IMG/VR virus record: IMGVR_UViG_3300050821_004776
Source of the DNA: an uncultured virus (IMG/VR IMGVR_UViG_3300050821_004776)
Lineage: Duplodnaviria; Heunggongvirae; Uroviricota; Caudoviricetes
Reading direction: 5' to 3' (one strand)
DNA length: 64,000 bases
This document shows, in pieces, positions 13,542 to 64,000 of this stretch (within the stretch, counting starts at the first letter, position 1; every line of letters begins with the position of its first letter). The notes under the pieces were generated by a model that ran no database searches, was not told where the DNA came from, and saw only the letters and a list, made by a program, of their open reading frames with translations. Both the position numbers and the translations under genes were made by a program.

Positions 13542-14201
13542 TCAGGCGCGGACGACCTTCACCGACTCGTCACTGCCGGGGAGATAGAGATTTACCCAGC
13601 CGTTCTCGATACGCAGGGTACGACCGCCGGTCAGCACGAAGCAGTCCGCCGGCCAGGAATTCCGTGTCACGGTCGCGGGGGTGTCTTCCGTGGCATGCGG
13701 GTACCTCCGCATCAGGTCGGCCTGCGCCGCGTCCACCCGGGCGGTCAGCTCTTCCCACTCCCCGCGCGTCCGGCGCGTCGCCTTCTGGTGCCGCTCGGCA
13801 TCCTGGGCGCGGATGCGGCGGCGGGCCTCGCGCAGCAGGCGGGCGGACAGCTCCGCGTAGGCACGGCCGAGAGCCAGGCACTCGCCGGTCACGCGATCGT
13901 GGTCATCGCCGCGCTCGCGCTTGCTGGCCCCGCTGCCGCCGAACACGCGCGTCACCTCGCCGTAGACACTGCCGCCGGCCGGCACCTGGCAGGACACCTT
14001 CGCGACGGCGGCGTCTCCCGTGACCATGACCTGCGCGCTCCCGGCCCGGTAGGCCGAGTCCGCATTCGGCGCGTACGGCGACGAGGCCGTCTGGAAGATC
14101 CCCTGGCCGGGGGAGGCGGAGTCGTATGCCAGCCCGCGCATCGCGGCGTCGGTCACGAACTCCCCGCCCTGCGGCAGTCGTTCCTTCTTCGTCTTGCTCA
14201 T
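13542..14201 (-). CDS. Hypothetical protein, possible DUF1876/dsRBD-fold domain
   Basis: GASKRERGDDHDRVTGECLALGRA resembles the DUF1876 motif. Confidence 0.5.
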   Translation of the reverse strand: MSKTKKERLPQGGEFVTDAAMRGLAYDSASPGQGIFQTASSPYAPNADSAYRAGSAQVMVTGDAAVAKVSCQVPAGGSVYGEVTRVFGGSGASKRERGDDHDRVTGECLALGRAYAELSARLLREARRRIRAQDAERHQKATRRTRGEWEELTARVDAAQADLMRRYPHATEDTPATVTRNSWPADCFVLTGGRTLRIENGWVNLYLPGSDESVKVVRA

Positions 14202-14491: not shown

Positions 14492-14555
14492 GACCTGTGC
14501 AACACGAGCCCTTCCGCGCGCATTCCCGCTGGGTGGCAGGGATTGCACTATTCAC

Positions 14556-14675
14556 TGGCGGGCAGCGCACGCTCGTCGTAAGCGGCTCAGGCTGGCCTAG
14601 AGGCCAGCACCGCAAACCCCGGCCACCAGCACAGATACTGTCGGGATGTGCGACCCGCTGGGTAGAATGTCCGTT
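14556..14675 (+). ncRNA. Putative natural single-guide RNA (tracr paralogue + repeat 3' end + guide)
   Basis: 14556-14619 matches the - strand of 32652-32589 at 56/64 nt (first 30 nt identical), then a hairpin, then GGATGTGCGAC (14644-14654), the last 11 nt of the CRISPR repeat. Confidence 0.8.
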
Positions 14676-20045: not shown

Positions 20046-23000
20046 TCACGCACGCGCACAAGCGGGTAAAAATGCACGGCAGCCTGGAGTTCCGGGTCAC
20101 CTACGCGATCGAGACCCTGCCCTTCCGGCAGCACCCCTTCCGGCCGGCCGCCCAGTACCAGCCGACGCACCTGACGTTCACCCTGGCCAGCGCGAGCCCG
20201 GAGGACGGCAGGCTTCCCCGGTACAAGGATCTTCACGTCAGTCATATCGACATTCGCGGTCCCCGGATCAAGAAGGACGGGACGCCCGGGGACTTCACGG
20301 TCAGGGAAACCCTGTACCGCAGCAGCCGTGAGCCGTGGCCGCCCTGGGCCGAGGACATCGTCCTGAAGGCGATCGCCGAGCTGAAAGGGCTGGACAATGG
20401 CTGACGTAGCCGGCTGCGCCCCTGAGTGGTACCGCAAGCAGCAGGACGACCTGACGAGGCAGCACCAGGCCACGCGCCGGGCCGCCCGTGCGGATACCGA
20501 GAACATGCTCTGGCGGATGACCGCCGATCAGCGCACGATGTTCCTGAACCGGCTGATCGTGGCCGACCCGGAGCGGGCGCAGGCTATCGCGAAGAACGTG
20601 CTGAAATGATGACCTGGGCGCTGTACATCATGATCTACCAGTTCATCGCGCTCCAGGCCGCCCGGTACCTGTACCGGCACCGCGAGTGGAAACTGCCGCA
20701 CCTGAACGAGTTCCGCACGACGGTCTACACCTGGGAGAAGTCCGCCTGGATAGCCTTCGTGCTCGGCCAGGCCTGGCCCGCCGGAATCCTCCGGACCCTG
20801 GCCGGGCTGGGTGTGAAATCAGTTCACTGGTATATCACCGCTGAGAAGCTCGCCCTGCGGAAGCCGCCCGTGATCGACATCGAGAAGGCGGAAGCCGACC
20901 TGGCCAGGGCCGGCCTGGAGCTGGCGGCAGCACAGTCTCCCGGTGACGGGCAGGAGAAGCACATCCCGCCGCCGGACGTGACCGGAACCTTCAGCACCCC
21001 GCCCCGGACCTTCGGCTACACCGACGATGAGTGGGAGGCGGTGTTCTGCCCGACGTTCCCCCACCGGTCCTTCGGCCGCATGCGTTCTCTCCATGGCATC
21101 CCGCCGCCGGACGTGACCGGAACCTTCAGCACCCCGCCGCGCCAGACCGGGGATCGTGATGACGGCTAGCGATCGCCTCACGCCGCCGCCGGAAACTCCC
21201 GGGCCGCGCATTCCCACCGCCGCCGAACTCGACGCGCACTTCATGGTGAGCAACAGCGACGGGAAGCGCTGCGAGGTCATCTCCGCGCCCACAGGCGAGC
21301 CTGTCTGCACTCGCGACGCCGTCTACCGGGTGACGCTGGTCTACCCGGACACGCACGCGTGCGGAAACCGCACCGCAGAATGCGCCCTGTGCCTGGAACA
21401 CACCGAGGGCATCCAGCGTTACGACAAATACAACCTGCTTGTGTGCAAGGCATGCAGGGCATCGGTCACAAAGCTGATAATCGAGCCGCTTGGAGGACGA
21501 GCATGACAGACAGGGGCTTCGCCCGCGTATATCACGAACTGGGCTTGTTCGGCATCGCCTGGAAAGAGGTCCGCAGGCTCATGAACGAGGCCATGAGCCT
21601 GGCCAGCGCCGAGCACCAGATGGGAGCCAAGGGCCGTGTTCCCATTCGCGGCACCAAGCGCGTACTGGTCTACAACTCCGGGATCGACGGACTCGACGCC
21701 ACCTGGTCGATAGAGGACGAGAACCCCGAGGTCCACGTGGACTGGCGCATGACCGCCGCCGAATGGGAAGAGCTGCGCAGCGTTCTCATCGGCCACGGCG
21801 GCACATCCGCGTACGTGAACAGCCTCTACTTGTCAGGGAAGCTAGGCCCGCACGCGCCGGAGATGAAGCACTGATGCCGTGGTGGGGGTGGCTCGTTATC
21901 AGCCTCCTGGGCACGTCACTGACCGCCGTGCTGATCCTGGCCGCGTGGTTCCTGCACGACCTGTCAAAGGGGATGCGGGGATGAGCGCCGTGGCCGCGAC
22001 GCCTGACCGGGCGGTGTGCGCCCACTGCGACCTGCGGGACGCCGCCAGCGGCGAGCACCTCTGCATGGGCTTCCTGTTCGACTGGCTGGAGGACCTGGAC
22101 GGCGAGCACCGCATGCGCGAGTTCGGCGAGCTGATCGGGCTTATGGATGAGCTGGGCATCTGATGTACCAGCTTTTCTACAAGACAGGGGAATCGGCGAA
22201 CTCCGCACAGCACGCCACCGCCTTCCGCACCAGGGCGGAGCGCGCGGAGTTCGCGAAGGGTCCGGAGGTCTACTGGTACCATTTGCCGGAGGATGAGGAC
22301 TGGTGCCGCTGGACACGCGGCGGAGCCTGGCAGGCGACCGCTCGTCCCGGCCCGGCTGACGTAGTGCCCGAGCCCCCCGAGATCACGGAGGATGACCGCT
22401 GGTGAGCGCAGGCACGATCGAGACTGAGATCACGGAGCTGGCCGGCCTTGACCTGGAAAGCGCCCCGCCCTGCCAGATGCGGTGGACTCACCAGGTCACG
22501 CACCGCAGTTTCTGCTGCGGCAAGCCTAGCGTGATACGACTTCACATACGCTGCAAGAGGTGCGGGTTCTCGGCTTACCGGTTCTACTGCCGCGAGTGCT
22601 GGGAGGACATCAGGAAAGGTGACGCGCGCTGCGGGAGCGAGTCCTGCGATAGCTCGGAATTCACCTACAGGGAGAGCTGATGAAAAGCCGGGAACTGATT
22701 ATGCGGTACTTCAAGGCCCGCGCGCTGTCATGGCTGACTGTCAGCACGATTCCCGTCATGATCCCGGGTACTGACAGCCCCGTGGTCCTCGCTGTCTACC
22801 ACAACGGGAAGTACATCAGTCCTGAGGTTGTTCATATTCCTAACGACCCTCGCGACCTGTGGGGGCCGGACGGCCCGATCAGCAAGGAGCCCCCGCCAGA
22901 CGAGGGCGGAGAGGATACACCGCATGAGCATTAAAGACGAGGCCGGCGCGGTCGTGCAGGCGACAGCCGAGGCCGCCGCCAGCCTGTACGCGGCGTTCAT

Positions 23001-25931: not shown

Positions 25932-27086
25932 TTACTGCGGCGGCTGCCCGCCCGCGAGCCTGGCCAGCAGCGCGGCCTTCTCCGGATCGGCTACTCCCGG
26001 GACCGGCGGGACACCGTTCGGGGCACCAGGAGCCTGCGTACCAGGCGCTGGCGGAGGGGCATAGCCCTGGGGTCCGGGAACTCCTGGCGCGGCACCGTTA
26101 GGAGGCGGCGGGGGCGGAGCCTGGAACTGTACCTGGGGCGGGGTGGCGTACTGGGCAGTAGCCGGGGGTGCGGGCGGCGCAGTAACCGGTGCCGGCACAG
26201 CAGGAGGGGCCTGGACCGCCGCCTGGTAGTAAGCGGCGTTCGGGTCAGGTGCCTGCGGAGCGTATCCCGGCGATGAAGCACCGGCCGGCGGCGGAACAGG
26301 AGAGGGGGCAGCCGCAGGTGCTGGCGGCGCAGCGTAGGTCTGCTGCGGTGCCGAGGGTGCCGGCGCTGGTGAAGTAGGGGGGACCTGCTCAGGGGCGTCT
26401 TCCTGAAGCTCCCTGCCGCCGGGCGTGTACTGGAAGTTGTACAGCTTGGTCGGGTTGTAGCCGGGGCGGCCCGCCGGGCGCTCGCCCGCGCTGACCATGT
26501 AGAAGGTCGCGCCGCCGAGGTGACGGTTGGCGATGGCCTTAGCGGGATCGGTGATGCCGGCGGCGGCCATGGCGTTCTTGAAGGCGTCGCTCGACGCGCC
26601 CTTCAGGTAGACCGACGCCATGCCCTCGGTGAAGATCCCCGGATGGCTGCCGTCCGAGCTGGCCAGGACCGTGCACGGGAGGATGAGGACGAACTTCGGC
26701 TTGCCGGTCCCCTTGAAGTTCTGGGGGACTCCGTCGGAATTGGTCTGCTGCTGGACGTCGGCCGGGGTGAGGTCCCGGGCAACCTGGAGCTGGAGCCAGT
26801 GACCCTGGGGGCGCTGCGCGGTGAAGAACTTGGTCACCGACGCTCCTCCCCCGGTGGGCTGATCCAGGAAGTCCTCCAGGGTGCCACGGGCAAGCACAGG
26901 GGCCTGGGGTGCCGCAGGCTGCTGCTGGTAGGGCTGTTGCGGAGGATAGTAGGCAGGCTGCTGATAGCCAGGAGGAGGTTGCTGGTAGCCAGGAGAAGGG
27001 GGCGCGTACCCCGGCTGCGGATAGCCCGGGGCCTGCTGCGGCGGGTAAGGCTGCTGCGGAGGGTAAGGCTGCTGCGGATACGTCAT
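25932..27086 (-). CDS. Pro/Gln-rich protein, probable ssDNA-binding protein
   Basis: Globular core (GKPKFVL...NPTKLY) flanked by low-complexity arms; lies between exonuclease and helicase. Confidence 0.5.
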   Translation of the reverse strand: MTYPQQPYPPQQPYPPQQAPGYPQPGYAPPSPGYQQPPPGYQQPAYYPPQQPYQQQPAAPQAPVLARGTLEDFLDQPTGGGASVTKFFTAQRPQGHWLQLQVARDLTPADVQQQTNSDGVPQNFKGTGKPKFVLILPCTVLASSDGSHPGIFTEGMASVYLKGASSDAFKNAMAAAGITDPAKAIANRHLGGATFYMVSAGERPAGRPGYNPTKLYNFQYTPGGRELQEDAPEQVPPTSPAPAPSAPQQTYAAPPAPAAAPSPVPPPAGASSPGYAPQAPDPNAAYYQAAVQAPPAVPAPVTAPPAPPATAQYATPPQVQFQAPPPPPPNGAAPGVPGPQGYAPPPAPGTQAPGAPNGVPPVPGVADPEKAALLARLAGGQPPQ

Positions 27087-27151
27087 CGACAGTCCTAAGA
27101 AGAAGAGGATGAGCCCTGTGCTTGCGCGATCGCCTGGTCAGGGGTAAATCT

Positions 27152-27238
27152 CAGTTGCCAGTTCACAGTTGTCAGTTGTCAGTTGCTGCCCGATTTGACC
27201 GCGCCCGCCCACTATAACCCGGTTCGCGCCGCTGTCGA
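27152..27238 (-). promoter_or_regulatory. Promoter (TCGACA-N16-TATAGT) and five heptamer repeats in the leader of the SSB-like gene
   Basis: -35 at 27238-27233 and -10 at 27216-27211; CAGTT at 27152, 27159, 27166, 27173 and 27180. Confidence 0.6.
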
Positions 27239-27253: not shown

Positions 27254-29173
27254 TTACCTCAGGTCACGTTTCAGGCTCGTCCCGGGGCAGCCGGCCTTGG
27301 TCCCCTCGGTGCTGGCGGCGGCATTCCAGAAGGGGCACCACTGGCAGTCATCGTCACTCGGCGTCATCGGCACCTCCCAGAACGTGACGCGCCCTTGTGC
27401 CATGAGCTTCGCCAGGTCTTCCCGCGCCCGGGTCTTGTCCAGGTACTCCAGGGCGAGGCGCAGGTCGTCGTTAGTGATCTCGTGCTCCCAGACGTACATG
27501 TCATCCAGCGTGGACTTGGTGCGCGGCCAGGAGATCAGCACCATCCGCCGGACGTCGAAGCCCTCGTTCATGTAGCCGATCGCGTAGAAGAGGAGCTGGA
27601 GGAAGTAGTGCAGCGGCGGCCCGTCCCGCCTCAGCCGCGTCCGGATCGCCTCGGACTGCCCCTTGTGGTCATCGACCGCGAACCACAGGGTGTCGTAGAG
27701 GTCGGCGGTCCCGGGGTGCGGCTGATCAGCTCCGGGGTCGGGGCAGACACGGCGCTCCGTGAACCAGCGGCCCGGGTTGCCGCCCTGGGCGGCGTCCCAG
27801 GCGAACGCCTGCTCAAGGAACGCGTGGATGGCCGTCCCGACGACCGAAGCCCAGGCGTAGGTGTCCTTGATGGCTCCCGTCGATTCGCCGAACGAGACCC
27901 CGGCCATCTTCCCCACGACCTGCCGGTCACAATTCCCTGTCATCAGGTCATCCGCCAGGCCGAACGCCCCTGTGCCTTCCACCGTGGCACAATACACCAG
28001 TTCCCGCCGCCCTGTGCGCTCTACGGACGCCACTTTCCAGTGCAAGTCGCGTTCCCCGTTCTGGCTAGCGGCTTCCGCACGACGGCGGTGCTCTTCGGTC
28101 AGGAAGAACCACAAGGGAAGATCCGCCCTGCGAAGGGTCAGCTTGTGCAAGGGCGTAGCTTCCGTCGCCAGGGTCTTTCCGCTGATGCCGACGCGCATGC
28201 TCGTTGTGATCAGCCCGTAACCGATACCGCAAACGGCAGCCACGCTGCGCACGAACTCCAGATTTTCGCGGGAAGCGGACGAGATAGAGCAGTGCCCGTC
28301 ATCCTCGCTGACTGTTCCGTCCGCCGCAAAATACCCGGCAAGCCAGGACACGAGAAACGCGCTGGATTCTCCGATGGGAGGCAATTCTTTCCAGAACTTC
28401 GGAAGGGGCCTGATCTCGTGCGAGAGCTGGACGCCCCTGTCCGGCTCGTCAGCCCGGGACTTCACTTCCCTGACTGCCGACGCCGGAAAGAATTTGAGCA
28501 TCGCGCTGTCTTTGCCGTTGGCATAGATGCTGAGAACGCCTGCCTGCACCCGGTTGCTCCCCTGCCGGTTACCGAGACGTGAACCGTCGCCGAAAACAAA
28601 CCCCTGGGCGGCAGCCACATCCATGAGGGTCGCACTGCGCGGCATAGCACGGCGGAGCTGGGTAAGGCGCTGTCCGGGACGAAGTTCCCGGGTCGTAAGA
28701 CGCTGCTGCTTCTTCTGCTTGCCCGACCAGTACGACCGGAACCACGTGTGCTCTGGCGTCGCGTAAATGACCTTCTCACTGCCGCTTCGGGTGAGCGTCA
28801 CCTTCAGCAGCTCTTGTTCGCCGAAGCACGTAACGGGAACACGCCTGAATTTGCCCCAGCGCTTGCGCACATCGCTGCCCGCATACAGCATGGGAACGAG
28901 CAGCTCGGCTTCACCTGTCTTCGCGAGGTCCCGGATAGGCTTCAGTCCTTCCCGGGTCACCACCTCCGTATCGCCCGACAGGCACGCGTGTCCCAGCTCG
29001 GAGGGGCCGAGGTGGCGCTGGACGTTGCGGGGCAGGCGCGCGGCGTAGCGCATCACCACATCCCGCAGCTCGGTGGCGTAGCGCTGAGCCCACAGCGTGT
29101 TGCCGCTGGAGAGGTAGACAGGCGGCCCGTGATAGGTGACCTGATCCGCGAACGCTGCGAGCTTGTCCGGCAT
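27254..29173 (-). CDS. Cas4-like PD-(D/E)xK exonuclease interrupted by an intein
   Basis: Spliced extein reads PSELGHA|CDRQ...GTAIH...ADLYD...DHK...QLLFY...CQWCPF...C (four Cys, Fe-S type). Confidence 0.85.
   Translation of the reverse strand: MPDKLAAFADQVTYHGPPVYLSSGNTLWAQRYATELRDVVMRYAARLPRNVQRHLGPSELGHACLSGDTEVVTREGLKPIRDLAKTGEAELLVPMLYAGSDVRKRWGKFRRVPVTCFGEQELLKVTLTRSGSEKVIYATPEHTWFRSYWSGKQKKQQRLTTRELRPGQRLTQLRRAMPRSATLMDVAAAQGFVFGDGSRLGNRQGSNRVQAGVLSIYANGKDSAMLKFFPASAVREVKSRADEPDRGVQLSHEIRPLPKFWKELPPIGESSAFLVSWLAGYFAADGTVSEDDGHCSISSASRENLEFVRSVAAVCGIGYGLITTSMRVGISGKTLATEATPLHKLTLRRADLPLWFFLTEEHRRRAEAASQNGERDLHWKVASVERTGRRELVYCATVEGTGAFGLADDLMTGNCDRQVVGKMAGVSFGESTGAIKDTYAWASVVGTAIHAFLEQAFAWDAAQGGNPGRWFTERRVCPDPGADQPHPGTADLYDTLWFAVDDHKGQSEAIRTRLRRDGPPLHYFLQLLFYAIGYMNEGFDVRRMVLISWPRTKSTLDDMYVWEHEITNDDLRLALEYLDKTRAREDLAKLMAQGRVTFWEVPMTPSDDDCQWCPFWNAAASTEGTKAGCPGTSLKRDLR
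27932..28984 (-). mobile_element. Intein (351 aa) with LAGLIDADG homing endonuclease
   Basis: Starts CLSGDT; ATPEH block B; GFVFGDGS and WLAGYFAADGT motifs; ends LMTGN before +1 Cys. Confidence 0.92.
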
Positions 29174-29225: not shown

Positions 29226-30655
29226 TCACGCCGGCGGTCGCATGAGGCCGACGACGAGCTTGAGCGCCTGGTCTTCGGTAAATCCCGCTTGCATGTACGC
29301 CTTGAACATCTCGTGCGCGGAGATCGCGGCCTCCACTAGCTGGCTGAACGGCTCGGACTGATCGTCACCCATGATGAGCCCCCCGCTTCCCGGCCGCCAG
29401 CGCCTTCCAGTCCGCTCGCGGTGCCGGGCTGTCCGCCTCGTCGTGTGCCCGCGCGTAATCCGCGTCCCCGAGGTACCACAGGCGGCATCCGTGCCCGTCT
29501 TCGCGGAAGCGGATGCCCTCATGCGGCTCGAACGTGAATGACCAGCCCGTGCACTTCGGCGCGCCCTCGTAGTCGATGCGGTCGGCGTACTTGCGCATCA
29601 GGGCGGCGAGACGGCGCTTCACGGCTCCCGCTTGCGGATGATCACCCATGATGAGCCCCCCGCTTGCGGATGATCACGCCGGCCACGCCCAGGAGCCTCC
29701 GCAGCGCCTGCACGTCGGAGAGGGTAACGACATGGCCTACGGTCATGCCGCCCTCGTCCGGGTCCAGGTGCTGGCCGGCGAGGCACAGGAGGTGCAGGGC
29801 CGTATCGCTCATGACAAGCGTGACCGGGTGCAGCCCCTCGTCTTCCGGCGGCCCTGGCGGGGACTGTGAACTCACCTCACGTTCCCGCGCGAGCCACAGC
29901 CCGAGGATCTCCGTGACCTCTTCCGCGATCTTCCGGCCCTGCTCGATGATCTCCGTGTACTCACCCACGGCGCGCTCCTCCCTTGTTCTCGCGCAGCTCC
30001 CACGACGCCTTGACGGGCTTGAGCCAGCGCTGGTACGTCTCGGGGTCTTCCGCCGCCATGGTCTTGCTGTCCACGCGCCAGCCCCCCTTCAGCGTCATCG
30101 TATACGCCGGGTACCTGCCGTGAGGATCGGCCGTGATGTCGAAGGCGTCCGGGAGATCCGCCGGGTCCGGGAACACCGACAGCAGCCACGCCTTGATCGC
30201 GGCCTTCAGCTCCTCGTGCGCTTCCTTCGCCACGGACTCGGCGTCGTCCGCCTTCTTGTTCGATATCAGGAGCTGCTCCAGCTTGCCGCCGGACTCCGGC
30301 TCGATCTTGGCGCGCTTCCGGGCAGGCTGGGGGACCGGCGGTGCCGGCTGGGGAACTGGTTCGGTCACGGCAGCCTCTCTTCCTGGCTGATCATGCGCCA
30401 GGCACACAGCTTGCCGCGCATGCGGGTATCCGGCTGGGCCGGGACGATCTCCACGACGGTGTCCGGTGACAGCCCCGCCCGCGCGCACTCCCGCACGAAC
30501 CCGGCCAGCTCGCCCACGGTCGGCGTCATCTTCCACGTCAGGAACACCTCCGCCCGGACCTGCGACCACACCGTCTCATCGTCGTGGACGTCGAAGCGGT
30601 CGGGTATGTAGCCAGGATCGTCAGGCGGGGGCTCAGGGGTGTAACCGCAGTTCAC
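29226..30655 (-). other. Five small hypothetical genes (29226-29372, 29365-29649, 29642-29968, 29961-30368, 30365-30655)
   Basis: Overlapping ORFs; GTG at 30655 is preceded by AAGGAG. Confidence 0.6.
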
Positions 30656-30702
30656 AGGGGACTCCTTAGGTACGGGCCGGGGGATGTAGCCAGGATCGTC
30701 AG

Positions 30703-31095
30703 GTCGCACATCCTGTCTCTCACCACAGGCATTGTCACATCGTCAGCATGCTGTACCCCGGCGTCTTCTTGCTGTCGCACATCCTGTCTCTCACCACGGG
30801 CATTGTCACGCCCTTGAGACGCCGCAGCTCACGCAGTGCCTTGGCGTCGCACATCCTGTCTCTCACCACGGGCATTGTCACCATTGTCACGGCCGGACCG
30901 AGGCGCTCCGGGAAGCGTCGCACATCCTGTCTCTCACCACGGGCATTGTCACATGTACGCCGGGTTGCCGTTCGCCTGCTGGACCGCGTCGCACATCCTG
31001 TCTCTCACCACGGGCATTGTCACCTGAAAATCAGGTGGGGCGCATGCCGGGAACACACGGTCGCACATCCTGTCTCTCACCACGGGCATTGTCAC
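30703..31095 (-). CRISPR. CRISPR array: 6 x 36-bp repeats (- strand GTGACAATGCCCGTGGTGAGAGACAGGATGTGCGAC), 5 spacers of 35-36 bp
   Basis: Repeats start at 30703, 30774, 30846, 30917, 30988 and 31060; spacers 35/36/35/35/36 bp, all different; single variant repeat at 30703 is the trailer end. Confidence 0.98.
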
Positions 31096-31240
31096 GGCTC
31101 GCTTATTTTACCGGCCTTGGCCTGCGGATACGTCCCCGCTTGCGAGCGGCGGGGCGGCCCCAGGCTTCCGGGATCAGGTTATCCCCCCTCTTGTATTCGA
31201 GTTCTGGCTCCCTGCCTGCCTGCGAGCGCTTCCCGGAATT
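31096..31240 (-). promoter_or_regulatory. Probable CRISPR leader/promoter overlapping the nuclease 3' end
   Basis: TAAAAT at 31110-31105, 9 nt before the first repeat; CGCTCGCA occurs twice upstream. Confidence 0.55.
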
Positions 31241-32548
31241 CTGCTGGGCACGCCACCGCTCGCGGATGTTGACAGCGGCGTTGACGTCCGCGTCGGCCTC
31301 GTACCCGCAGCTCACGCACAGGAACCGCGTACTCGCCCGGTTAGCCCTCTCCGTGCAGCCGCAGGCGGGACAGCACTGGCTGGTGTAAGCGGGATTGACC
31401 TCCGGGGCGCTGCCGCCCTTCTGCGCGTACAGCACGGGAATCGCCCCGAGGTTAGCGGCCAGCAGTTCCCGGTTCAGCCCCTTTTTGGCCGCGACGTTCG
31501 TGCCGGGAACCTCTTCAGTGCCGGCGGCCGACCGTGTCATGGCGGGCAGCTTCAGGTCCTCGAAGACCACCGTCTCATAGGAGTCCGCCATCACCCGGGT
31601 GAGCTTGTGCAGGTGATCGCGCATGCGGTGCTCCGCCAGGGCGCGCAGTTCCCGCAGCTCGCCCAGGGTCCGGAGGTACCGCGTACCCGGGTGCCATTTC
31701 TTCCGGCATCCCGGGACCTGGCAGCGCTCCCGGTGCTCAGCCTCCGCTCGCCGCCGCTGACGGGCTAGCCGCTGCTCAAGAGCCGTGTACCTGGCGCGTT
31801 CAGCCTCGGTCAGGCCGGGGGTGATGGCGTAACGCCCGTCGCTGACGGCGACCTGCAAGTTCACGCCCCGGTCCGCGCCCGCTACCGTTCCGGGCAGGGC
31901 CGCCGGCCGCGCGTAAGCCTCAGTGCTGAGCGTGATCACGATCTCGAACTTGCCCTGGATGCCGCGCTTCACCCTGATGCTGGCGATATCAGCACCGGCA
32001 GGCAGCTCCCGGTGATACCGGATCTTCCATTCCCCGCCGAAGGCCCCGGGCAGCTTTACCCGGGCATGCAGCCCTGACACCGAGCGGATCGCGGGTACCG
32101 GCACGTTGGTACCGCCGGCTGTCATGAGAGAGCTGTCCGCGTAGCGTTTCCGGTACCTGACGCTCGCCTTCTCGCCTCGTGCCCGGCGTTCAGTCACCTT
32201 CTTGCGGGCCTGCCTCAGCTCATCGCCTATGGCCGCGCCCAGCGCTACCGAGTGCACGTCGCTCATGGGATACACGCCGTCGTCCCATCTGAAGGTGAGC
32301 TGCTCGCGGATGATCTTGCCCGTCCACGGGTCACTGTACACCGCCGGCTTCGCGGGCAGCATGCCCTTCCCGGCATGGCCTGCCCTGAGCGCGCTGTTCA
32401 CGTCCGCCAGGAACCGGACCTTGAAATTGTAGCCACGGTTGACTCCCGTGACCTGCTTGTCGTACGCGGCCTGCTGTGTCTTGCTGGGGTAAGCCGCGTA
32501 CTTGTATGCCCGGGACTCCCCGGTCTTAGGGCGCTTGCGTTTCGGCAT
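31103..32548 (-). CDS. tnpB: CRISPR-associated TnpB / miniature Cas12-like RuvC nuclease (481 aa)
   Basis: N-terminal AYKYAAYP; RuvC-I GADRG, RuvC-II VFEDL, Zn finger CPAC...CVSC, RuvC-III DADVNAAVNI; adjacent array and anti-repeat. Confidence 0.93.
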   Translation of the reverse strand: MPKRKRPKTGESRAYKYAAYPSKTQQAAYDKQVTGVNRGYNFKVRFLADVNSALRAGHAGKGMLPAKPAVYSDPWTGKIIREQLTFRWDDGVYPMSDVHSVALGAAIGDELRQARKKVTERRARGEKASVRYRKRYADSSLMTAGGTNVPVPAIRSVSGLHARVKLPGAFGGEWKIRYHRELPAGADIASIRVKRGIQGKFEIVITLSTEAYARPAALPGTVAGADRGVNLQVAVSDGRYAITPGLTEAERARYTALEQRLARQRRRAEAEHRERCQVPGCRKKWHPGTRYLRTLGELRELRALAEHRMRDHLHKLTRVMADSYETVVFEDLKLPAMTRSAAGTEEVPGTNVAAKKGLNRELLAANLGAIPVLYAQKGGSAPEVNPAYTSQCCPACGCTERANRASTRFLCVSCGYEADADVNAAVNIRERWRAQQNSGKRSQAGREPELEYKRGDNLIPEAWGRPAARKRGRIRRPRPVK

Positions 32549-32559
32549 CGCATCCCTTC

Positions 32560-32653
32560 ATTCCCGACAATGCCCATGGTGAGAGACAGGGTTCGCGGTG
32601 CAGGCCCGGAGGCCAGTCTTAACCGCTTACGACGAGCGTGCGCTGCCCGCCAT
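32560..32653 (-). ncRNA. tracrRNA-like RNA with 25-nt anti-repeat (32566-32590)
   Basis: CCTGTCTCTCACCATGGGCATTGTC is complementary to the crRNA repeat (24 Watson-Crick pairs + 1 G-U); extended -10 TGTTACAGT at 32667-32659. Confidence 0.88.
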
Positions 32654-32682
32654 CGGCTACTGTAACACGCTCTTCGCGGGAT

Positions 32683-34971
32683 CTATTCCGTCTCCCGCTC
32701 GCTCTCGTGCCGCAGGTCCCCGGGCCTGATCCGTGGCTGGTGAACTATCGTGCCCTCCAGGACGGGCGGTGCCATGGAGAGCTTGCGGTACGAGCCCTGC
32801 CCCGACGCCGTGAACGTGCCGTCGTCGGTCAGTTCCCGAATCCAGTTCTTGACCGTGCTCAGCTTCACGTCCCTGAACGGCCCGGAGGTATCCGCCATGG
32901 CAGCCTTGGCCAAGCTGTTCTGGCTGTAAAAGTTCACCGGCTCCTCGGACACCAGGCGCACGAGCCGCAGCTTCCCCTGGGCCTTGCCCGTGCTGGCGGC
33001 CACATCTTCCAGGGCATTGTCCGGCTCCGGTGCCCAGTTCCGGAACATCGGGGTCTTCGGGTACTTCGTGATACCCGCGTCCGCGCTGTTCCGGCCGTCG
33101 CCTGGCATCCAGAGAAAACCGGCCACCGTGTTCTGCCCGACGTTCCCCCACCGGTCCTTCGTCACGGTCAGCGTGGAGTACCCGGGGTCCGACTTGGTGA
33201 ACGGCTGGGCCTGCTCGACACGGATCACGTAATCGGCGGCGCTCTCCTTGCGCTCGGCCCCGAACGTGGTGGTGCCGCTCTTGGGGAGGTGGTCCAGGAC
33301 CACGGCGGTGCCGCCGGCCTTGGTGTACAGGTTGAGGAATTCCTGGAAGATGTACTGCTCGATCGCGTCCCCGTCGTTGGCCGAAGTGCCCGGTGCCAGC
33401 CTGGCCTGGAGTCCCCGGAACGCGTCGATCACCAGCAGGCACGGGCCAAGCTCGGCAAGGGCATCGGTCAGGTCGGTAAGCGCGGGCAGCTCGTCGGAAT
33501 AATGCAGGTGATAAGCGATGGCATGCGGCTGGAGGCCCATGTACTTCAGCTTGGCGTTAAGACCCCGGTCCTGCCGCTCGAAGTCAATCCATATGACGTG
33601 AGAACCTTCGAGGATCTGCTGTTCCGCCCATTTGGCGGCGGCCCATGTCTTTCCCGCTGACCGGTGGCCTGAGATGACGGTAATGCTCCCCGGCGCGATG
33701 ATCGGCTGCGGATTGGAGTCCCTGCCCACGATTGTCAGCATGGTAGGGGCGGGCGGTTCTTCAAGGCGGGAGATGTCCCTGAATCCGCTGAACTTCCGTG
33801 CCAGGACAAACGCTACGTCCCGGTCAGCCTGCAAGCGGGCTAGCCCTAGCTTGAACTGCCTGTCGTACTCCGGCGTGCCCCGGACAAGAGCGGCGAGGTA
33901 ATCAGCGGGGCTCTGCGACGACGGCTGGGGATTGTCCTGGGTGAGAGGCCGGACCTCGAATAGCGCCTGCTGCTGAACCGTTTCCAGGATTCTCTGCTCG
34001 CGCAGCGCCCGCAGTTTCCGCTCTGTCTCGAAAGCCTGGCTAGTGCGCTCGGCTATCTCATTCAGCTCGCCCTGGCTGGCGGGAAGATGCTCAACGGTCT
34101 TTTCCTGTGCCTGGACGAGAGCCGCCGCCTTCTGCTCGGTGTTGGCATCGACCAGGCCGGAGAGGTGGTGTTCTTCCCAGGGCTCGGCGGGATTGAGCGC
34201 CAGGGCCACGCGCTTGAGCTGTTCCATGGCCTGACCGGGGTTCAGGCGGGACGCCAGCAGGTAAAGGGCGAATTCCGCCAGCTCCGTACGGTGGCCGAGG
34301 GAATTGTCCGCCTGCGCCAGCCACCACTCAGGGCCGTCCGCTGGCCGGGTATAAGCGGTCGCGCTCTGCGGCACGGGAGGATTGGCGAGGTAATTGACCC
34401 AGCGCTCAGGCAGTTCAGGCAGCTCGTCCACGTTAGGGAGAAGGCACACCTCGCCGAGCGGGTCGAAACACTGGACGAGCTGGCCGTTCTTGTGATTGAC
34501 GTCGCCCGGAGCCCAGCTAAATCTGTGCGCTGTCCTTACTATCTCTATGTGCGTGCCGCCGTGCTCGTCCGCGAACTGGGCCAGCGCCGAGTCGGTGAAG
34601 TCGAGCCAGTCCGGCTTGCGGAACAGGTACCGGCCGCTGGGATTGCCGTAGCCCCGGCTCGTGACCCGGAACGTCGCGGGCAGGTCCCCCAGCCACGCCT
34701 CCGCCTTGTCCATCGTGTCCATGCCGCGCTTGTGGTCGTAGTGATCCACGTCGAAGGCGACCACGCCCGGCGGCGGCCGGAAGGCAAGGCGGTGCGCTCC
34801 GGCGGGCTGGGCCACGACAGTGGGGAAGGGAGACGATCCTCCGGTGGTGCCGGGAACGGGGGTGTACGCGCCGGACTGCCGCGCCAGGCACCAGACAGGC
34901 TGCCAGCCGTTCATGATCATGTTCTGCGCCAGTTGCAGCAGCAGCTCGGGCGGTGCCACGTTCGCAGGCAT
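32683..34971 (-). CDS. Bifunctional primase-polymerase / AAA helicase
   Basis: N-terminal prim-pol FDVD...GRYLF; C-terminal GHRSAGKT, WIDFE, LVIDA and VLDH motifs; TGGTACCGT 7 nt before ATG 34971 suggests a leaderless start. Confidence 0.88.
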   Translation of the reverse strand: MPANVAPPELLLQLAQNMIMNGWQPVWCLARQSGAYTPVPGTTGGSSPFPTVVAQPAGAHRLAFRPPPGVVAFDVDHYDHKRGMDTMDKAEAWLGDLPATFRVTSRGYGNPSGRYLFRKPDWLDFTDSALAQFADEHGGTHIEIVRTAHRFSWAPGDVNHKNGQLVQCFDPLGEVCLLPNVDELPELPERWVNYLANPPVPQSATAYTRPADGPEWWLAQADNSLGHRTELAEFALYLLASRLNPGQAMEQLKRVALALNPAEPWEEHHLSGLVDANTEQKAAALVQAQEKTVEHLPASQGELNEIAERTSQAFETERKLRALREQRILETVQQQALFEVRPLTQDNPQPSSQSPADYLAALVRGTPEYDRQFKLGLARLQADRDVAFVLARKFSGFRDISRLEEPPAPTMLTIVGRDSNPQPIIAPGSITVISGHRSAGKTWAAAKWAEQQILEGSHVIWIDFERQDRGLNAKLKYMGLQPHAIAYHLHYSDELPALTDLTDALAELGPCLLVIDAFRGLQARLAPGTSANDGDAIEQYIFQEFLNLYTKAGGTAVVLDHLPKSGTTTFGAERKESAADYVIRVEQAQPFTKSDPGYSTLTVTKDRWGNVGQNTVAGFLWMPGDGRNSADAGITKYPKTPMFRNWAPEPDNALEDVAASTGKAQGKLRLVRLVSEEPVNFYSQNSLAKAAMADTSGPFRDVKLSTVKNWIRELTDDGTFTASGQGSYRKLSMAPPVLEGTIVHQPRIRPGDLRHESERETE

Positions 34972-35007
34972 GAGACTGACGGTACCACGGGGATGGGATA
35001 CCAGCGA

Positions 35008-35175
35008 GAATAGGGGGGTCAAGGGGGGGTCAGAATAGGGGGGTCAAGGGGGGTCAAAGGGGGGTCAAACAGGAGCAGCGCCAACTGGGTCAAGGGGGGG
35101 TCAACACGGCACCCTTTTAAGGGGGCCGTGAACCCCCTGACCCTTGACCCCCCGCTGTTGACCTGACCCCCCCTG
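35008..35175. repeat. Candidate replication origin: iteron-like GGGTCA repeats converging on a palindrome
   Basis: Seven GGGTCA copies, then CACGGC-ACCCTTTTAAGGGG-GCCGTG (35105-35130), then four TGACC(C) copies; lies between divergent primase and polymerase genes. Confidence 0.7.
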
Positions 35176-42422: not shown

Positions 42423-42459
42423 CCCGCAGGCCACGGTCTTGCCGGCTCCTGCGGGAGTT

Positions 42460-42486
42460 CCTGTGGTGAGAGACAGGATGTGTGAC
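42460..42486 (+). CRISPR. Orphan partial CRISPR repeat
   Basis: CCTGTGGTGAGAGACAGGATGTGTGAC matches the 3' 27 nt of the trailer repeat at 26/27. Confidence 0.85.
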
Positions 42487-43329
42487 CTAAGACCCGTATT
42501 CCTCCTGGGCACGGGCGTTCTGCACGCCGTTCAGCAGGTAGGAGGTCACGGCCAGGCCGCCGCCCCCGCTGTTGATCTCGAAGCCGTAGTCCAGGCCCGT
42601 CAGCCACCAGGCGTGCGCCAGCGCGTGGAAGTGCATCGCCTGGCCGAAGAACGGGTTGAGGCTGCCGTGGAAATCTGCCATCGGCCGCTGGGCGGCGAAG
42701 TAGATCCGGTGCCAGCAGTCGCCGTGCTGGCAGACGTAGCCGCCGTTGACGTTCCACCAGATGCCGTCCTCGTACACGACACCGTAGGAGGTTCCCGGCC
42801 CCCTGCTGGCCCACCGGCCGTTGCGCATCGCTGCGGTCCAGACCATGACTTCGGTCCCGCCCTGGCCCTGGTGCGTGCCGGCCGCGTCGTAGCCCGGCTC
42901 GAACCACACGTCGAAGCCCGCGTTCCAGCTCCCGCCGCGCGTGAGCGCTGTCCGCAGGTTCACGACGGGATTGCCGTCATGGGCTGCGGGCACGGGATAC
43001 CAGGTCTTCCGGCCGCCCTCGTACGGCACCATGCCGTGCTCGGCTCCCTGCCCGATGTTGGGGTAGACCCAGCCCCCCTGCGACGCCTGGACCACCTGGA
43101 ACGCCGGCAGGTAGACGTTACCGCTCTCCGTCAGCCTCAGGGTGCTCCAGATGTTCCCGGACGTCTCGGTGTAGATGCCGAAGTACTCGTGCTCGCCGTT
43201 ATGGGAGTACGTGGACCGCGCCGCTGTCACGGGATGGGTTACAGCAGCCTGCGCGAAGCTCATCCCGGTCAGCAGTACGGCCAGGGTGGTGACCGCGCCG
43301 GTGATAGCGGCGCTCAGTGTCCTGATCAT
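42487..43329 (-). CDS. Secreted glycoside hydrolase family 12 (endoglucanase-like)
   Basis: Signal peptide; YPNI, NAGFDVWF, TEVMVW and GFEI motifs, with both catalytic Glu present. Confidence 0.82.
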   Translation of the reverse strand: MIRTLSAAITGAVTTLAVLLTGMSFAQAAVTHPVTAARSTYSHNGEHEYFGIYTETSGNIWSTLRLTESGNVYLPAFQVVQASQGGWVYPNIGQGAEHGMVPYEGGRKTWYPVPAAHDGNPVVNLRTALTRGGSWNAGFDVWFEPGYDAAGTHQGQGGTEVMVWTAAMRNGRWASRGPGTSYGVVYEDGIWWNVNGGYVCQHGDCWHRIYFAAQRPMADFHGSLNPFFGQAMHFHALAHAWWLTGLDYGFEINSGGGGLAVTSYLLNGVQNARAQEEYGS

Positions 43330-44162: not shown

Positions 44163-46267
44163 TCAGGGTGCGCATGTGCCGCGCTTGACCAGCGGGCGTT
44201 CCGGCCGTCCGTGCGCGTATGCCATCGCGCTCCCGAAACCGGTCCAGGGCAGGTCCGTGCGGCCAGTCCGCTCCCAGAAATGACCATCGGCGTCTTCCAC
44301 GACGTCCCCTTCGGCCCACTCAGGCTCGCGGTGCGCGACCGCGTCCTCGTAGATCTCCTGGGCGTTCAGGACCCGGTAGCCCTTGCGGATCAGTGCTGCC
44401 CTCAGCTCGTCCAGGGTGATCGCCGCCGGGTGATCAGGGGCAGGGGCGGTCTGCTGATAGGTGAAGTGCTCCGGCTCGCGTCCGGCGTTCCGCAGCGCGG
44501 CTACCCAGCTTCCTTCTCTCAGGGTCCGGGTGTGCGCCGCGCTGCGGGTGCCGTCCGTGCGCTCCACGGTGACGCGGAAAAGGCCGGTCCCCGCTTCGGC
44601 GTTGCCGGCGTCCATGGCGCGGCTCGTTGCGAGCTGCGCGGCGGTGCGGCGGAAGAGGGCCTCCGTCAGGGTGGTGCAGTCATGGAAAGCGAACGTAAGC
44701 TGGCTCTGCCCTGACGCGAGGCCGCCTGTCCGGAGCGCGTGGTGCCGGAGGGCGTTCCGCAGGTCGTGCTTGGTGATGGTGTCGTTGTCGTCAGTGAAGA
44801 AGTGCATCAGGATTTGCCTCCTAGGGCGTTGCTGAGAGCGGTGAAATCGGAGAGGGTGCTCTGGAGTCCGGCCACCGCGACCTGGTAGTTCCCCGCCGTG
44901 AATTCCAGGGCGGAGGTGCTCAGGTCTGTCATCGCCGACCGGTACAGCGCGCCGTCCACCGGGGGAGGGTAGGCGGAGGCTGTCGCGGCGTCGGTACTGA
45001 CCTGAGTCGCCTGGGCGTCGCACTGGGTGTAGGCGACCGCTGTTTTCAGGCAGTCATCCCATGCTCCCAGGGCCGTGACCGTGGCGCTGTAGTCCGCGCC
45101 GGCGTTGCCCGCCAGCCAGGAGTTCAGCGTTACGGTCACGGGCTGTTGCGCGGGGGCGGGCCGGAACACGACCTGGGTCAGTACCAGGGTGATGCCGAAG
45201 CCGAGGATGGCCAGGGCGATGAGGAGCGCCAGGGCGCGGTGACTGAGCTTCATGGGTTAAACGCTAGCCGACCGCGATGGTGACTGTCAGGGCGGTGGGG
45301 TTGCCGAGCGCCGCGTACGCGGCCTTCTTCACGTATAGCGCGCCGACCGCGACGTCCTGATCCGGAGGGGTGTCCTCGTTGAAGCGGACGGTGTTCTTGG
45401 TGGCGCGCTCCTTGGTGAACTTGACAACGAGTTCTCTGGTTTCCTTCTTGACAGCCATCAGGTTGCCTCCTTTTTGATGTTGGTGCGCGATGCGCGGGTG
45501 AAAACGGGTGATACACGGACGCCGATCCGCCAGTGAAACAGCAGCTCGGCGTTGAGGACTCGCTCCATCTTGCGAGCGACGGCTTCCGGGTCCATTCCCT
45601 CGGGAATGCGCTCGGGGTGATCCGTGATAGCGATCACGAACTTGTTTTCCACGACGTTGGTCCGGGGCTTCACCGGCCGGCCGCCCATTTGTAGAGCGCG
45701 TACAGGGCATGCCCGGTGACGGCCCCGCCGTAAGTCTCGGCGAATGTCAGCCAGAAATCCGCTGCCCCGTGCTCGTGGCTTGCGGCGTACAGGATGCAGG
45801 CCATGACCAGCGCAAGGAGGATGGTGGCGGGTTGCAGCGCCAGGGTCAGGAAGCGCTTGAAGGCTTTCACGGTCCCACCCCCCACTTCGGGGAGGCGGCG
45901 AGCACGATCAGCTCAGGAGCCTTGAAACAGTACTCCTGGGTCAGGAGCTTGCGCACCTTGCTGATCGCACGGGGTGCCGTGGTGGCGCTGACGGTTTCCA
46001 GGTGGTTGTAGTCCTCGTGTGCCCAGCGCCACACGACTTCGTACTCGACGGCTTTCACGCGTTCTCCCTGAAGTACTGGACGGTGATGCGGAAGGTACCC
46101 ACGCCGGGCATGACTACCTGGAAGTCCGACGTCGGCGGTGTATCGCTGAGGGCGGTCATCGACCATTCCTGGCTGGCCGGCCCGAGCTGCACGCGGCCGG
46201 TAAAGATCGCGCTGCGGAGCCTGCGGGCGAAGTCCCCCGCGTCCACCGTGGGGTACGGCGGCATCAC
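44163..46267 (-). other. Run of small hypothetical genes (including 44807-45253, 45264-45458, 46055-46267)
   Basis: Contiguous - strand ORFs. Confidence 0.55.
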
Positions 46268-47091
46268 GCGGTTTCCTTAGCGGCAGCACGGCGGCGGGGA
46301 GCGCGGGCCTTCGGCTTCTCTTCCGGCCTGGTGGCCTTCAGCGACGCCTGGATCGCGTCCATCATGTTCACGATCGCCGCGCCGCCCGGTTCGGCGGGCT
46401 TGGGGGCCGCGATGACGTGGCCCTTCTCGATCTTCGCCTGGATCACGGCGGCGACCGCCTCAGTCGAGACATCCTTCTGGGCGGCGTAGTCAAAGTCGCC
46501 GGTCATCTGCTCGATGAGCCTGGCAGCCAGTGCCTGCTCGTCCTCGCTCGCCGTCATCGGCGGGGCCGCGAAGTCGGGCGTGAGCACGTCGGCATGCCAT
46601 TCGAGCGACTCCAGGATCAGGTAGCCGTCCTGCGGGGCAAGCACGGCCAGGGCTACCCGCTGCCGCATGGCGAAGGTCAGGATCGCGACCTTGCCCGACG
46701 CCTGGAGCGCGCCCGCCAGCAGGGCGTAGGTCTTCTCGCCCCCCTTGTCGGGCTGCACGTGGTAGGACGTCTTGATCGCCGTCCGGGGCACGCTCGCCGC
46801 GTTCGTGAACATGAGGATCGACGCCACGCGGTTCTTCGGGCCGTAGGCTGCCTTGAAGTCCTCGTCGTCCAGGATGACCAGGGAGCCGTCCGGGGCGTCG
46901 TAGCCTTTGGCGATGTCATTCCACTGGACTTCCTGCCCGTCCGCCTCAGCCACCCGCGTGAAGCGGATGCGCGAGCCGTCGCTCTTGCGGACCATGTGCA
47001 GTCCGAGCTGGTTGTCCTTGGTGGAACTGCCGAGCTTGACCGGCATGTTCAGGAGCGAGAGCGTGATGGCTCCCGTCCAGATCGATCGCAT
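46264..47091 (-). CDS. ku: Ku (NHEJ end-binding) homologue
   Basis: MRSIWTGAI...PVKL...GSRIRF...IAKGY typical of prokaryotic Ku. Confidence 0.93.
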   Translation of the reverse strand: MRSIWTGAITLSLLNMPVKLGSSTKDNQLGLHMVRKSDGSRIRFTRVAEADGQEVQWNDIAKGYDAPDGSLVILDDEDFKAAYGPKNRVASILMFTNAASVPRTAIKTSYHVQPDKGGEKTYALLAGALQASGKVAILTFAMRQRVALAVLAPQDGYLILESLEWHADVLTPDFAAPPMTASEDEQALAARLIEQMTGDFDYAAQKDVSTEAVAAVIQAKIEKGHVIAAPKPAEPGGAAIVNMMDAIQASLKATRPEEKPKARAPRRRAAAKETA

Positions 47092-62100: not shown

Positions 62101-64000
62101 ACCTGACCGTTGTCAGAGTAAGCGCATACTTGGATTTGTGCCGTGCGCGATGCCGGGCGGGGCATTGTGCGGCCTGTTAGCAACCCTGCCGCAAACATGA
62201 GAAGAAACAGGCCGGCTAGCAGAGAGAGAAACATGATGCGGCTCATGGCGGTTACTTGCTAAGGGGAAGGTTCAGCCAGATTCCGGCGCGTTCCGCCATG
62301 TCTCGCCGCGCGCGGTCAAACGCGCAATCGTCCGTGTCGGCGCGGAAGACAGGGAAGTAGCGGCCTGAATAGTAGGACGCATAGCGGTCATGGGCGTGCG
62401 TTCGCCACGTGACGCAATTACCGGCAGGGTCCATTCCCATGACGACGTATTCGCCTACCGATACGGGGGTAGCCGCGATAATCTGATATCCGGCATTGTA
62501 GGTATCGAGCTTGGGAGTGATCAGCATTTCTGTAACCTCTCGTTTGGTGTGCCGCTGTTGGCGTTGGCAGTCTGGGCTTACCAGCGATGGGCGGTGATCA
62601 AGACGCGTTCGCGTGCAGTGCGTAGCTGTAAGCCGTTACGGCTTCGGCCATACGATCGGGCGCTAGCCGCGCTAGTTCCGCGAGGATACCAGCGGCACGC
62701 GCTTCAATCTTTTTCGCCTCATTGGTCGCCGTCACCCAGTCTGCGGGAAGGTCGGCATCGGACGTACACGCCGCGCGCTTTGCGGCGTTGCGCCACGTTG
62801 CCACGTGATAGCCATCCTCCTTTAGCGCGTGAATGGCCGCTTGGATCATGTCCGGCGTGAGCGGTATTCCGGTTTTCATGAGCGTGATTCTCCCGTATAT
62901 TCCAGCAGGTGAGTAAGGCAGAGAAGGTAAGCCGCGTCGTCGGTATCCTCCGGTATGACATCACTGTCTGGGTCCAGGCACCACGGGCAATCCTCCCCGG
63001 CGGGGTTCTCGCCGCGCGTGGGGTCGTAAGGCACGGTCACGATATCGTCGCCGGTATCGGCTTGATAGCGCGCGTAACTGGCGTCGTCATACCACGCGTC
63101 CGTTCCTGGCATGTCGCTACTTCCCGCTCTCTTGCGGCGTGGCCTTGCGGACCATACGTCGGGTGGCGCGCTTGCGGACGGACCGCGCGCGGGGGTCTGG
63201 GTAGTCGTCATCGCGTTGCATCGCACGGTACAGCGCCGTGCGGCTGAATCGCGTAACCGGGGCAGTCATGGCGTCTAGTCTCCCTTACCTGACCGTAGGC
63301 ACGTAGCCTTGTGCGGCTAGTTCCGCACGCGTGAGCGGACCGGAGTAGCCGCGCCGGCGCGCGTTACGCTTGCGCGCTTCCATAGCCTTACGTTCGCTCT
63401 CTGCCCGTTCCGCTTGCTTGCGGGCATTGAGTTTGCCGATAACCGCTACGGGGTTATCGCGCGATACGAATTTGCCGTTGCCGGCCCGGTAGGCAGTCAT
63501 TGTGAATCCTCTCGATTGGTGCCGCTGTTGGCGGGGGCAGTCCAGACTTACTCCCGATGGGCGACCCTATTTGGCGTCTTTGTCCGCCCAGAGGCGGGTG
63601 ATCTCGGCAACGGTAGCCGCGTCTAGGGTGATGATAGCCTTTCGGCCTTTGACGCTAGCCGGACCGTCCGTGACCGTCGCCGCTACCATGACGCCTAGTT
63701 CGCCGGCGGTGGCGACGTGTGATCTCTCGGCATTGGCTACCCATATCATTCTGCTTACCGGCATGGCCGTGTCTCCTCAGATCAGGTTGCGGATGACGTT
63801 GTACAGGAACTGGTCACAGAACGGGAAAGGCGGGTTGACGAAATACGCCGTTACCTCGTATTCCACGTTCGGTGCGTTGGGCACGGTGTAACGCGCGGGA
63901 GTGTGCGTCTTTTCGCCGATAAGCGCGGCGTTCATTATGTCTATGACTTCATCGATTGTGAGTTTGAAGTCCGTCAGCCCGTGCGTCTGTGACAGCAGTT
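53146..64000 (-). other. Long run of about 25-30 small hypothetical genes (probable early/host-takeover region)
   Basis: Short, tightly packed - strand ORFs with GAGAGG/GGAG RBS; no recognisable domains. Confidence 0.6.
62024..63563 (-). repeat. Three 45-bp start-associated repeats (62024-62068, 62549-62593, 63519-63563)
   Basis: Copies 1 and 3 are identical and copy 2 matches at 37/45; each lies just upstream of a CGAGAGG RBS. Confidence 0.9.

Follow-up and report, generated by a model that had tools for sequence, protein, structure and literature searches.

A CRISPR array beside a TnpB-like nuclease gene in a soil phage carries a trailer spacer that probably stems from a relative's primase-helicase gene

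Organization of the locus and its genomic setting

The window (the whole stretch of 64,000 nucleotides analysed here) comprises the first 64 kb of a complete virus record of 118,021 bases with direct terminal repeats, which occurs in soil metagenomes and has a GC content of about 65%. A CRISPR array was identified on its minus strand (30703..31095), consisting of six 36-nt repeats and five spacers of 35–36 nt. It adjoins a gene for a TnpB-like type V nuclease of 481 aa (31103..32548, minus strand), upstream of which lies a predicted tracrRNA of roughly 90 nt (32561..32652, minus strand). Directly upstream of this cassette follows a gene of the phage itself (32683..34971, minus strand), whose product of 762 aa resembles a primase-polymerase with an AAA_25 helicase-like domain. 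This product revealed Prim-Pol and AAA_25 domains above the Pfam cut-offs and a PHROG primase match, its helicase role being suggested by the domain. Based on the GC content and on the matches of the primase-helicase among cultured phages, 95 of 99 of which belonged to Gordonia, Corynebacterium or Rhodococcus phages, all of them weak, the host is probably actinobacterial.

The five spacers occupy positions 30739..30773 (S1, 35 nt, between the repeats 30703-30738 and 30774-30809), 30810-30845 (S2), 30882-30916 (S3), 30953-30987 (S4) and 31024-31059 (S5), all on the minus strand, and are identical in a second assembly (L005). Thus, we found near-identical repeats, unique spacers of constant length and an adjoining effector with RuvC as its only nuclease domain. 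Five repeats are identical and the one at 30703-30738 carries a single change. S1 was assigned to the trailer end for three reasons: the variant repeat lies there, the nuclease gene is found at the opposite end, and pairing of the anti-repeat is in the minus sense, with a duplex energy of -81.3 kcal/mol compared to -73.6 kcal/mol when the opposite strands are paired. Taken with a scaffold copy fused to the 3' end of a repeat, described below, the distal position of the variant repeat and the sense of this duplex fix the orientation of the array. S1 is therefore likely to be the oldest spacer, and as the trailer spacer it may be obsolete. In the crRNA sense, the last 9 nt of S3 equal the first 9 nt of the repeat, leaving only 26 unique nucleotides, possibly as a product of slippage. 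The 19 nt directly behind the trailer repeat (30684-30702) are found again within the next gene, at a distance of 78 nt (30606-30624), where the flank is CGC instead of TTC; this duplicate could represent another guide, which would be the sixth, a scar left by an insertion, or a repeated peptide.

No genes for Cas1 or Cas2 were detected in the complete genome, and searches for TnpA of both types (Y1 and serine recombinase) resulted in no matches, so that the acquisition of spacers would require machinery from outside. Further features of the genome were recorded alongside the locus. G-rich short repeats and an inverted pair form an origin-like region (35007-35163) between the divergent primase-helicase and polymerase genes, and an intergenic motif of 45–70 nt is repeated at least five times in the region 61998-63563 and at genome positions 64061-64479. 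Dispersed duplicates connect 46237-46269 of the window with genome positions 109455-109487 (33 nt, 94%) and, as an exact inverted copy of 22 nt, 14136-14157 with 49446-49467. RNA contigs with a depth of 19–70 cover the 5' end of a proline-rich gene (25932-27086) at 26790-27192 in three runs. An intein-like insert in the exonuclease gene (27254-29173) spans about 350 aa and includes a LAGLIDADG domain. It is missing at the same site in three related virus records (G002, G003 and G004) and represents another homing-type element in the module shared with the CRISPR cassette.

The nuclease and its predicted guide RNAs

In the nuclease, the RuvC residues D226, E330 and D421 as well as a four-cysteine zinc finger are intact, and the three catalytic residues were invariant in 46 aligned rows. 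The only NCBIfam model above its cut-off was NF040570 (guided_TnpB, 114 bits, cut-off 100), while PADLOC, for which no cut-off was given, resulted in Cas12u4 as best match (E 1e-37), followed by a Cas12f model (3.5e-35). RdCas12n (9j09; PMC12216341) was the best sequence match in the PDB (E 3e-20), limited to the C-terminal half. The predicted structure (pLDDT of 84) was most similar in fold to the ISDra2 TnpB (8h1j), with LaTranC (9jfq) at rank 14, and its C-terminal tail appeared disordered with low confidence (pLDDT below 50 at residues 440-455 and 462-481). Close homologues formed only two clusters with 56–58% identity, after which the identity dropped to that of ordinary TnpB proteins; a locus search with the single nuclease sequence likewise returned only distant TnpB.

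Between the 5' part of the repeat and the anti-repeat of the tracrRNA (about 32566-32591), a duplex of -58.8 kcal/mol is predicted, compared to -32.4 kcal/mol for the best other window and -28.4 kcal/mol as the best value for the tail of the gene together with the leader. A loop with the sequence GTCGT could pair with the 3' end of the repeat, giving a pseudoknot recognized by eye. A possible -10 hexamer (32659..32664, minus strand) was seen by eye 6 nt before the start of the scaffold; a sigma-70 scan revealed no promoter, and Rfam resulted in no match. RNA contigs near-identical to the window covered the 5' half of the nuclease gene in four of four RNA runs and S5 in one, although these runs were found using the DNA of the window, may themselves hold DNA and give no information on strand or level; S1 was covered by none of the RNA contigs listed. 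Contigs of two studies ended at 32643 and 32642, near the predicted start of the tracrRNA, which is a weak hint at this start.

Two further repeat-derived elements were identified in the window. A second scaffold copy is fused to the 3' end of a repeat (14556..14654, plus strand) and resembles a natural single-guide RNA. The guide of this element, within the region 14523-14675, corresponds to the promoter region of the gene that follows, which looks phospholipase-D-like by eye; nine nucleotides of the guide recur just upstream (14526-14534), directly behind a TTC (14523-14525). In addition, a solitary partial repeat of the trailer variant was found (42460..42486, plus strand) with TTC at its left junction (42458-42460, with an ambiguity of one base). 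The solitary repeat (42458-42488) lies behind a terminator-like hairpin and on the strand opposite to the array.

Based on its sequence, the nuclease locus appears to work like a tracrRNA-dependent TnpB derivative of the Cas12n/TranC grade, with RNA guidance as a prediction. Inference of about 50 independent TnpB-to-CRISPR events has been reported (PMC12669027), and small phage-borne type V systems are known (bioRxiv 10.64898/2026.04.20.719267; 10.64898/2026.03.27.714800). Cas12n (V-U4/V-N) is described as requiring a tracrRNA that overlaps the C-terminal tail of the ORF, with a disordered tail and an A-rich PAM (PMC12216341). Besides its leading PADLOC match to Cas12u4, with Cas12f next, and its PDB match to RdCas12n, the phage nuclease has in common with that description the disordered tail and the predicted need for a tracrRNA, but differs in its predicted PAM (TTC) and in its best fold match to the ISDra2 TnpB, and since its anti-repeat is located upstream of the gene instead of within the tail, we did not file it as Cas12n. 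A TranC protein is characterized by the use of both split guides (tracrRNA plus crRNA) and fused guides by one and the same protein. Among the TnpB-to-Cas12 intermediates listed as TranC, the phage-borne CauTranC9 is included (bioRxiv 10.64898/2026.03.27.714800; PMC13565253), and likewise the present locus combines a TnpB-sized phage nuclease and a split tracrRNA/crRNA with a fused guide form in the same genome, but only two clusters of close homologues were found for it. In comparison to IS200/IS605 or IS607 elements, TnpB sequence and fold are shared, but TnpA is absent here.

Origin of the trailer spacer

The preliminary description had pointed out that S1 resembles a site in the resident primase-helicase gene, and this likeness was reproduced on the same strand and in the same frame. 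S1 (minus strand, frame 0) translates into SKKTPGYSMLT, compared to TKSDPGYSTLT at the resident site (33164..33198, minus strand), with identities of 23/35 nt and 7/11 aa. The resident site lies 481–515 bp from the stop of the gene and differs from the guide at 12 positions, seven of which fall within the first 20 nt. Judged against the genome alone, this match is at chance level. S1 finds another match of equal quality at 11710 (23/35), the best matches of S2–S5 elsewhere in the genome reach 23–24, at least 23 matches were obtained in 41 of 300 dinucleotide shuffles, and the six-frame BLOSUM score of 37 was reached by 32 of 150 shuffles.

The protein family of the resident gene gave a different result. 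The search with the helicase region yielded 40 proteins including the resident, and in a profile built from the other 39 the S1 peptide scored 35.9 bits at column 592, which is the column of the resident site. In this profile, the resident itself scored 27.2 bits, and all 39 homologues tested by leave-one-out stayed below S1 (maximum 34.5). Neither the 20,000 shuffles nor the 19,239 genomic 35-mers included one that reached the score of S1, and S2–S5 did not exceed 10.4. The tail probability for S1 was about 2e-6 to 9e-6; correcting for five spacers and some 46 gene-lengths raises it to about 2e-3 at most. Since the site had been fixed in advance of any family comparison, a clean second test was possible on the four residues in which S1 differs from the resident, and 44 of 51 full-length homologues were used for it after removal of those at least 90% alike. 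S, K, T and M are found in 24, 11, 11 and 7 of these 44 non-redundant homologues, respectively; in their columns, the first three are more frequent than any other residue, and M shares second place. The resulting probabilities were 2.8e-6 with background frequencies and 5.5e-6 with a BLOSUM-like substitution model. Of 57 rows, one did not contain the motif and was dropped; among the remaining 56, three homologues matched 9/11 and eight matched 8/11 of the residues of S1, and none matched all 11. A wider profile search of homologues added no better peptide match (best 6/11). Finally, a six-frame comparison of all spacers with five phage genomes resulted in S1 on the homologous site of G001 as top match. 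Thus, although the numbers given earlier for the genome alone are at chance level, the conclusion on the origin holds because of the family statistics, and the derivation of S1 from a homologue of the resident primase-helicase is strongly supported.

Regarding the carrier of this homologue, a motif-seeded, non-exhaustive scan of 185,579 prokaryote genomes did not find the primase-helicase family, which makes a related phage the likely source. The four family loci compared here (G001–G004) are all virus records that share 18–51 of 107 test ORFs with the phage, replication genes included. Based on both observations, the source of S1 was very likely the gene of a relative. The four records themselves match S1 at the homologous site in only 17–19 of 35 nt, compared to 23 for the resident, so that they are not targets of S1 either; their sites lie 474–540 bp from the stop of the gene. 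In G002 and G003 the primase gene is inverted, G001 ends just after it, and G004 shows the same gene order, with other genes filling the slot of the cassette. None of the four carries the nuclease. A locus search with the single primase sequence found no relative. Within the S1 peptide, T4 and M9 are common to the sister clade of the resident (P0002/P0003/P0181, support of 1.0), the serine at position 1 occurs in other clades, and the aspartate of the resident at position 4 was found in only 1 of 44 homologues. In 40-residue windows over residues 321–640, resident and P0002 are 56–85% identical, with 80% and 78% in the two windows spanning the S1 site and no sharp drop, while their N-terminal parts fall into different groups. 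Comparison of P0001 with P0002, P0003 and P0004 showed the family to be a mosaic between N-terminal and helicase halves; the tree of the N-terminal part was a quick IQ-TREE tree and that of the helicase part was calculated with FastTree.

Separately, an exact duplicate of 34 nt was noticed between the primase-helicase gene (33128-33161, 2 nt beyond the site homologous to S1) and 21041-21074. An unrelated ORF (20606-21169) carries the latter copy antisense in its 3' end, flanked by direct repeats of 45 nt (20962-21006 and 21097-21141). Outside the CRISPR parts and the 62–64 kb motif, only one other exact dispersed duplicate of at least 22 nt was recorded; the 34-nt duplicate is also present in L005, has no TTC flank and is possibly a repair scar.

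At the DNA level, no near-perfect protospacer was found for any of the five spacers in viral, genome, metagenome, phage, plasmid and soil DNA searches, and the expectation that near-perfect matches would turn up in primase-helicase genes was thus not borne out in the viral, metagenome and phage searches. Viral contigs gave no hits for the repeat, the relaxed S1 pattern, S2, S4 or the first 21 nt of S5; S2 was also searched in genomes, with no hits. The S1 peptide pattern returned only the same phage from metagenomes. BLASTn of the whole array, which also covered S3, resulted in no hits against phages and in six records against plasmids (E 0.3–4). The match of S2 on a Streptomyces plasmid (about 29/36; one record inspected) was rejected due to its CTC flank and mismatches at the 5' end of the guide. 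For S1, BLASTn against phages revealed four records (E 0.4–4), the best being three Enterobacter phages with 27/32 matches (E 0.4). These are the highest raw identities obtained for S1 and were read as chance; in the one phage inspected, the flank is CTT, and the first 14 nt include five mismatches. S2–S5 reached 22–24 matches in the four related genomes, which is chance level. In the soil DNA runs, two of four of which yielded contigs, neither new spacers nor spacer-only contigs were detected.

A 5'-TTC PAM is predicted from three junctions, as TTC precedes the primase site, the copy of the fused guide and, more loosely, the solitary repeat. At the resident site it is the codon of Phe591 (33199..33201, minus strand), directly 5' of the sequence homologous to S1. 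Since a count of 56/56 is partly built into the search pattern, we based the conservation of this residue on 40 of 40 aligned rows and on its invariance in alignment A1. The codon is TTC in all five DNA copies, and TTC makes up 1.4% of positions. A codon-frame test, in which S1, S2 and S4 scored best in sense frame 0, was discarded as PAM evidence, as it fits TTC but AAG or AAC equally well. Compared to the guide, the resident site keeps the PAM and is mismatched at positions 2, 7, 8, 10, 11, 12, 15, 22, 23, 26, 33 and 34. Given the general behaviour of type V seeds and these mismatches, seven of which lie in the first 20 nt, self-cutting at the resident site is not expected. The proposal that divergence avoids self-cleavage therefore fits the pattern, PAM intact and seed region mismatched, with cleavage as its presumed part. 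The divergence looks like ordinary divergence of the family acting as a filter, and the rare D4 leaves room for escape.

Possible role of the locus

Taken together, we consider it probable (about 0.68) that S1 was captured from a related, unsampled phage and guides the nuclease against that relative, the copy of the phage itself escaping by seed mismatches. Directly seen are the array with its anti-repeat and intact nuclease gene, as well as the match of S1 to the family and its pattern of mismatches with the resident; the remaining steps would proceed as follows. As the complete genome has neither cas1 nor cas2, Cas1-Cas2 of the host or another route would add the spacer. The upstream tracrRNA would pair with the repeat and the pair would load on the nuclease, and the complex would then read 5' TTC from the conserved Phe codon and cut the essential replication gene of the rival while both phages, by co-infection or superinfection, share a host, which is probably actinobacterial. 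The suggestion that the system serves competition between phages is thus backed by the family match of S1, with competition as the presumed outcome; it rests on one spacer of five, as S2–S5 have no assigned target.

This reading could be extended to RNA-guided intronless homing, in which a cut made in the neighbouring gene of a co-infecting relative would be mended with the DNA of the phage as template, so that the resistant allele and, 0.5 kb away, the cassette are copied into the relative. We regard this extension as possible but doubtful. The target lies in the gene adjoining the cassette, 481–515 bp from its stop, and position and mismatches would fit a predicted cut in a nearby conserved gene of the relative next to a resistant allele of one's own. 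The patchy distribution of the cassette (nuclease in 0/4 relatives, other genes in its slot in G004), the mosaic family of the primase-helicase, and the two other guide sources, which abut native DNA with TTC at the junction, point in the same direction. However, the finding of a target next door is biased, because only the primase-helicase family was profiled in depth, and by share of the genome a target in the adjacent gene among five spacers would be expected in an estimated 1 in 10 cases. Moreover, repair between phages may be poor at a local DNA identity of 66%, no cassette-bearing relative with a matching conversion tract was found among the relatives compared, the gene is inverted in G002 and G003 and located at the very end of G001, and the identity to P0002 does not fall off sharply at the site.

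An origin of S1 in the ancestral gene of the lineage itself, followed by escape through mutation or recombination, seems unlikely to us. It would agree with the resident being the closest of the five DNA copies, with the less common Gly codon GGG shared by resident and S1, with T4 and M9 in the sister clade next to the rare D4 of the resident, and with the clustering of five of the 12 mismatches in codons 3–4. But the 12 differences, including three synonymous codons and a switch between the Ser codons AGC and TCC outside the seed, far exceed what escape needs, the serine at peptide position 1 is absent from the clade of the resident (T there), and a perfect self-spacer together with an active nuclease should be lethal upon acquisition. 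The PAM kept at the resident site would also allow the nuclease to sit on its own primase-helicase gene as a regulator without cutting, but the guide is mismatched at position 2 and at five more positions from 7 to 12, the site is situated far inside the coding sequence and the nuclease has its catalytic residues intact, which makes such binding very improbable. Least of all do we believe in a chance resemblance of a spacer from an unrelated sequence. The genome-only statistics and the higher raw identity of the Enterobacter phages would be compatible with it, but the small probabilities in the profile (2e-6 to 9e-6) and in the conditional test at the pre-named site (about 3–6e-6) argue against it, as does the exact start of the guide after the conserved Phe codon.

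Mini-arrays carried by viruses such as SPV1 and SPV2 target related viruses (PMC11656645), and the locus described here agrees with them in having a virus-borne spacer against a related virus. According to that account, they consist of one or two spacers with repeats identical to those of the host and use the effector of the host, whereas the phage locus has five spacers and its own nuclease and tracrRNA. CRISPR-Cas systems of huge phages, as reported, have compact arrays (median of six repeats), mostly without Cas1 and Cas2, and some of their spacers are directed against core genes of other phages (PMC7162821); by comparison, the present phage has 118 kb, a TnpB-like effector of 481 aa and, as presumed target, a homologue of the gene adjoining its cassette. 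Free-standing endonucleases of T4 cut hundreds to thousands of bp from their own gene (PMC2988022) and rely on differences in a conserved gene close by to separate self from non-self (PMC13565253). As in the intronless homing of T4 Seg and Mob enzymes, the nuclease gene occupies a variable intergenic slot, the cut is predicted to fall in a conserved gene next to this slot in a relative, and the phage's own allele would be resistant, but specificity would come from a CRISPR spacer, and transfer is a prediction. In the same source, drive by TnpB in plasmids is noted and homing at orthologous phage sites is treated as a theoretical possibility (PMC13565253). No natural CRISPR-guided intronless homing between phages was found in full-text searches of a library with few subscription papers. 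Targeting of relatives by a phage is known, and the position of the target about 0.5 kb from the cassette, as in intronless homing, would be the new part.

Methodologically, statistics on a protein family recovered the target of S1 in a case in which matching of DNA does not succeed, and for an uncharacterised nuclease of 481 aa with a tracrRNA of about 90 nt and a natural single-guide form, a predicted TTC PAM can be given that is open to testing. As a tentative picture at best, the cassette might be a natural CRISPR-guided homing element among phages, in which a TnpB-derived nuclease of a small clade would use its oldest spacer to cut the primase-helicase gene of relatives, repair would copy the cassette, and the same nuclease would also serve the fused guide and the solitary repeat, each aimed at its own empty site. 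The clade, which would be a small undescribed one in this picture, may already be listed in the tables of the Cas12n and TranC papers. If the target in the neighbouring gene does reflect homing, the locus would connect CRISPR arrays with the selfish role of TnpB and illustrate one possible route for the spread of new type V systems from phage to phage; a TnpB-to-Cas12 intermediate would then persist in a phage through selfish homing as well as through defence.
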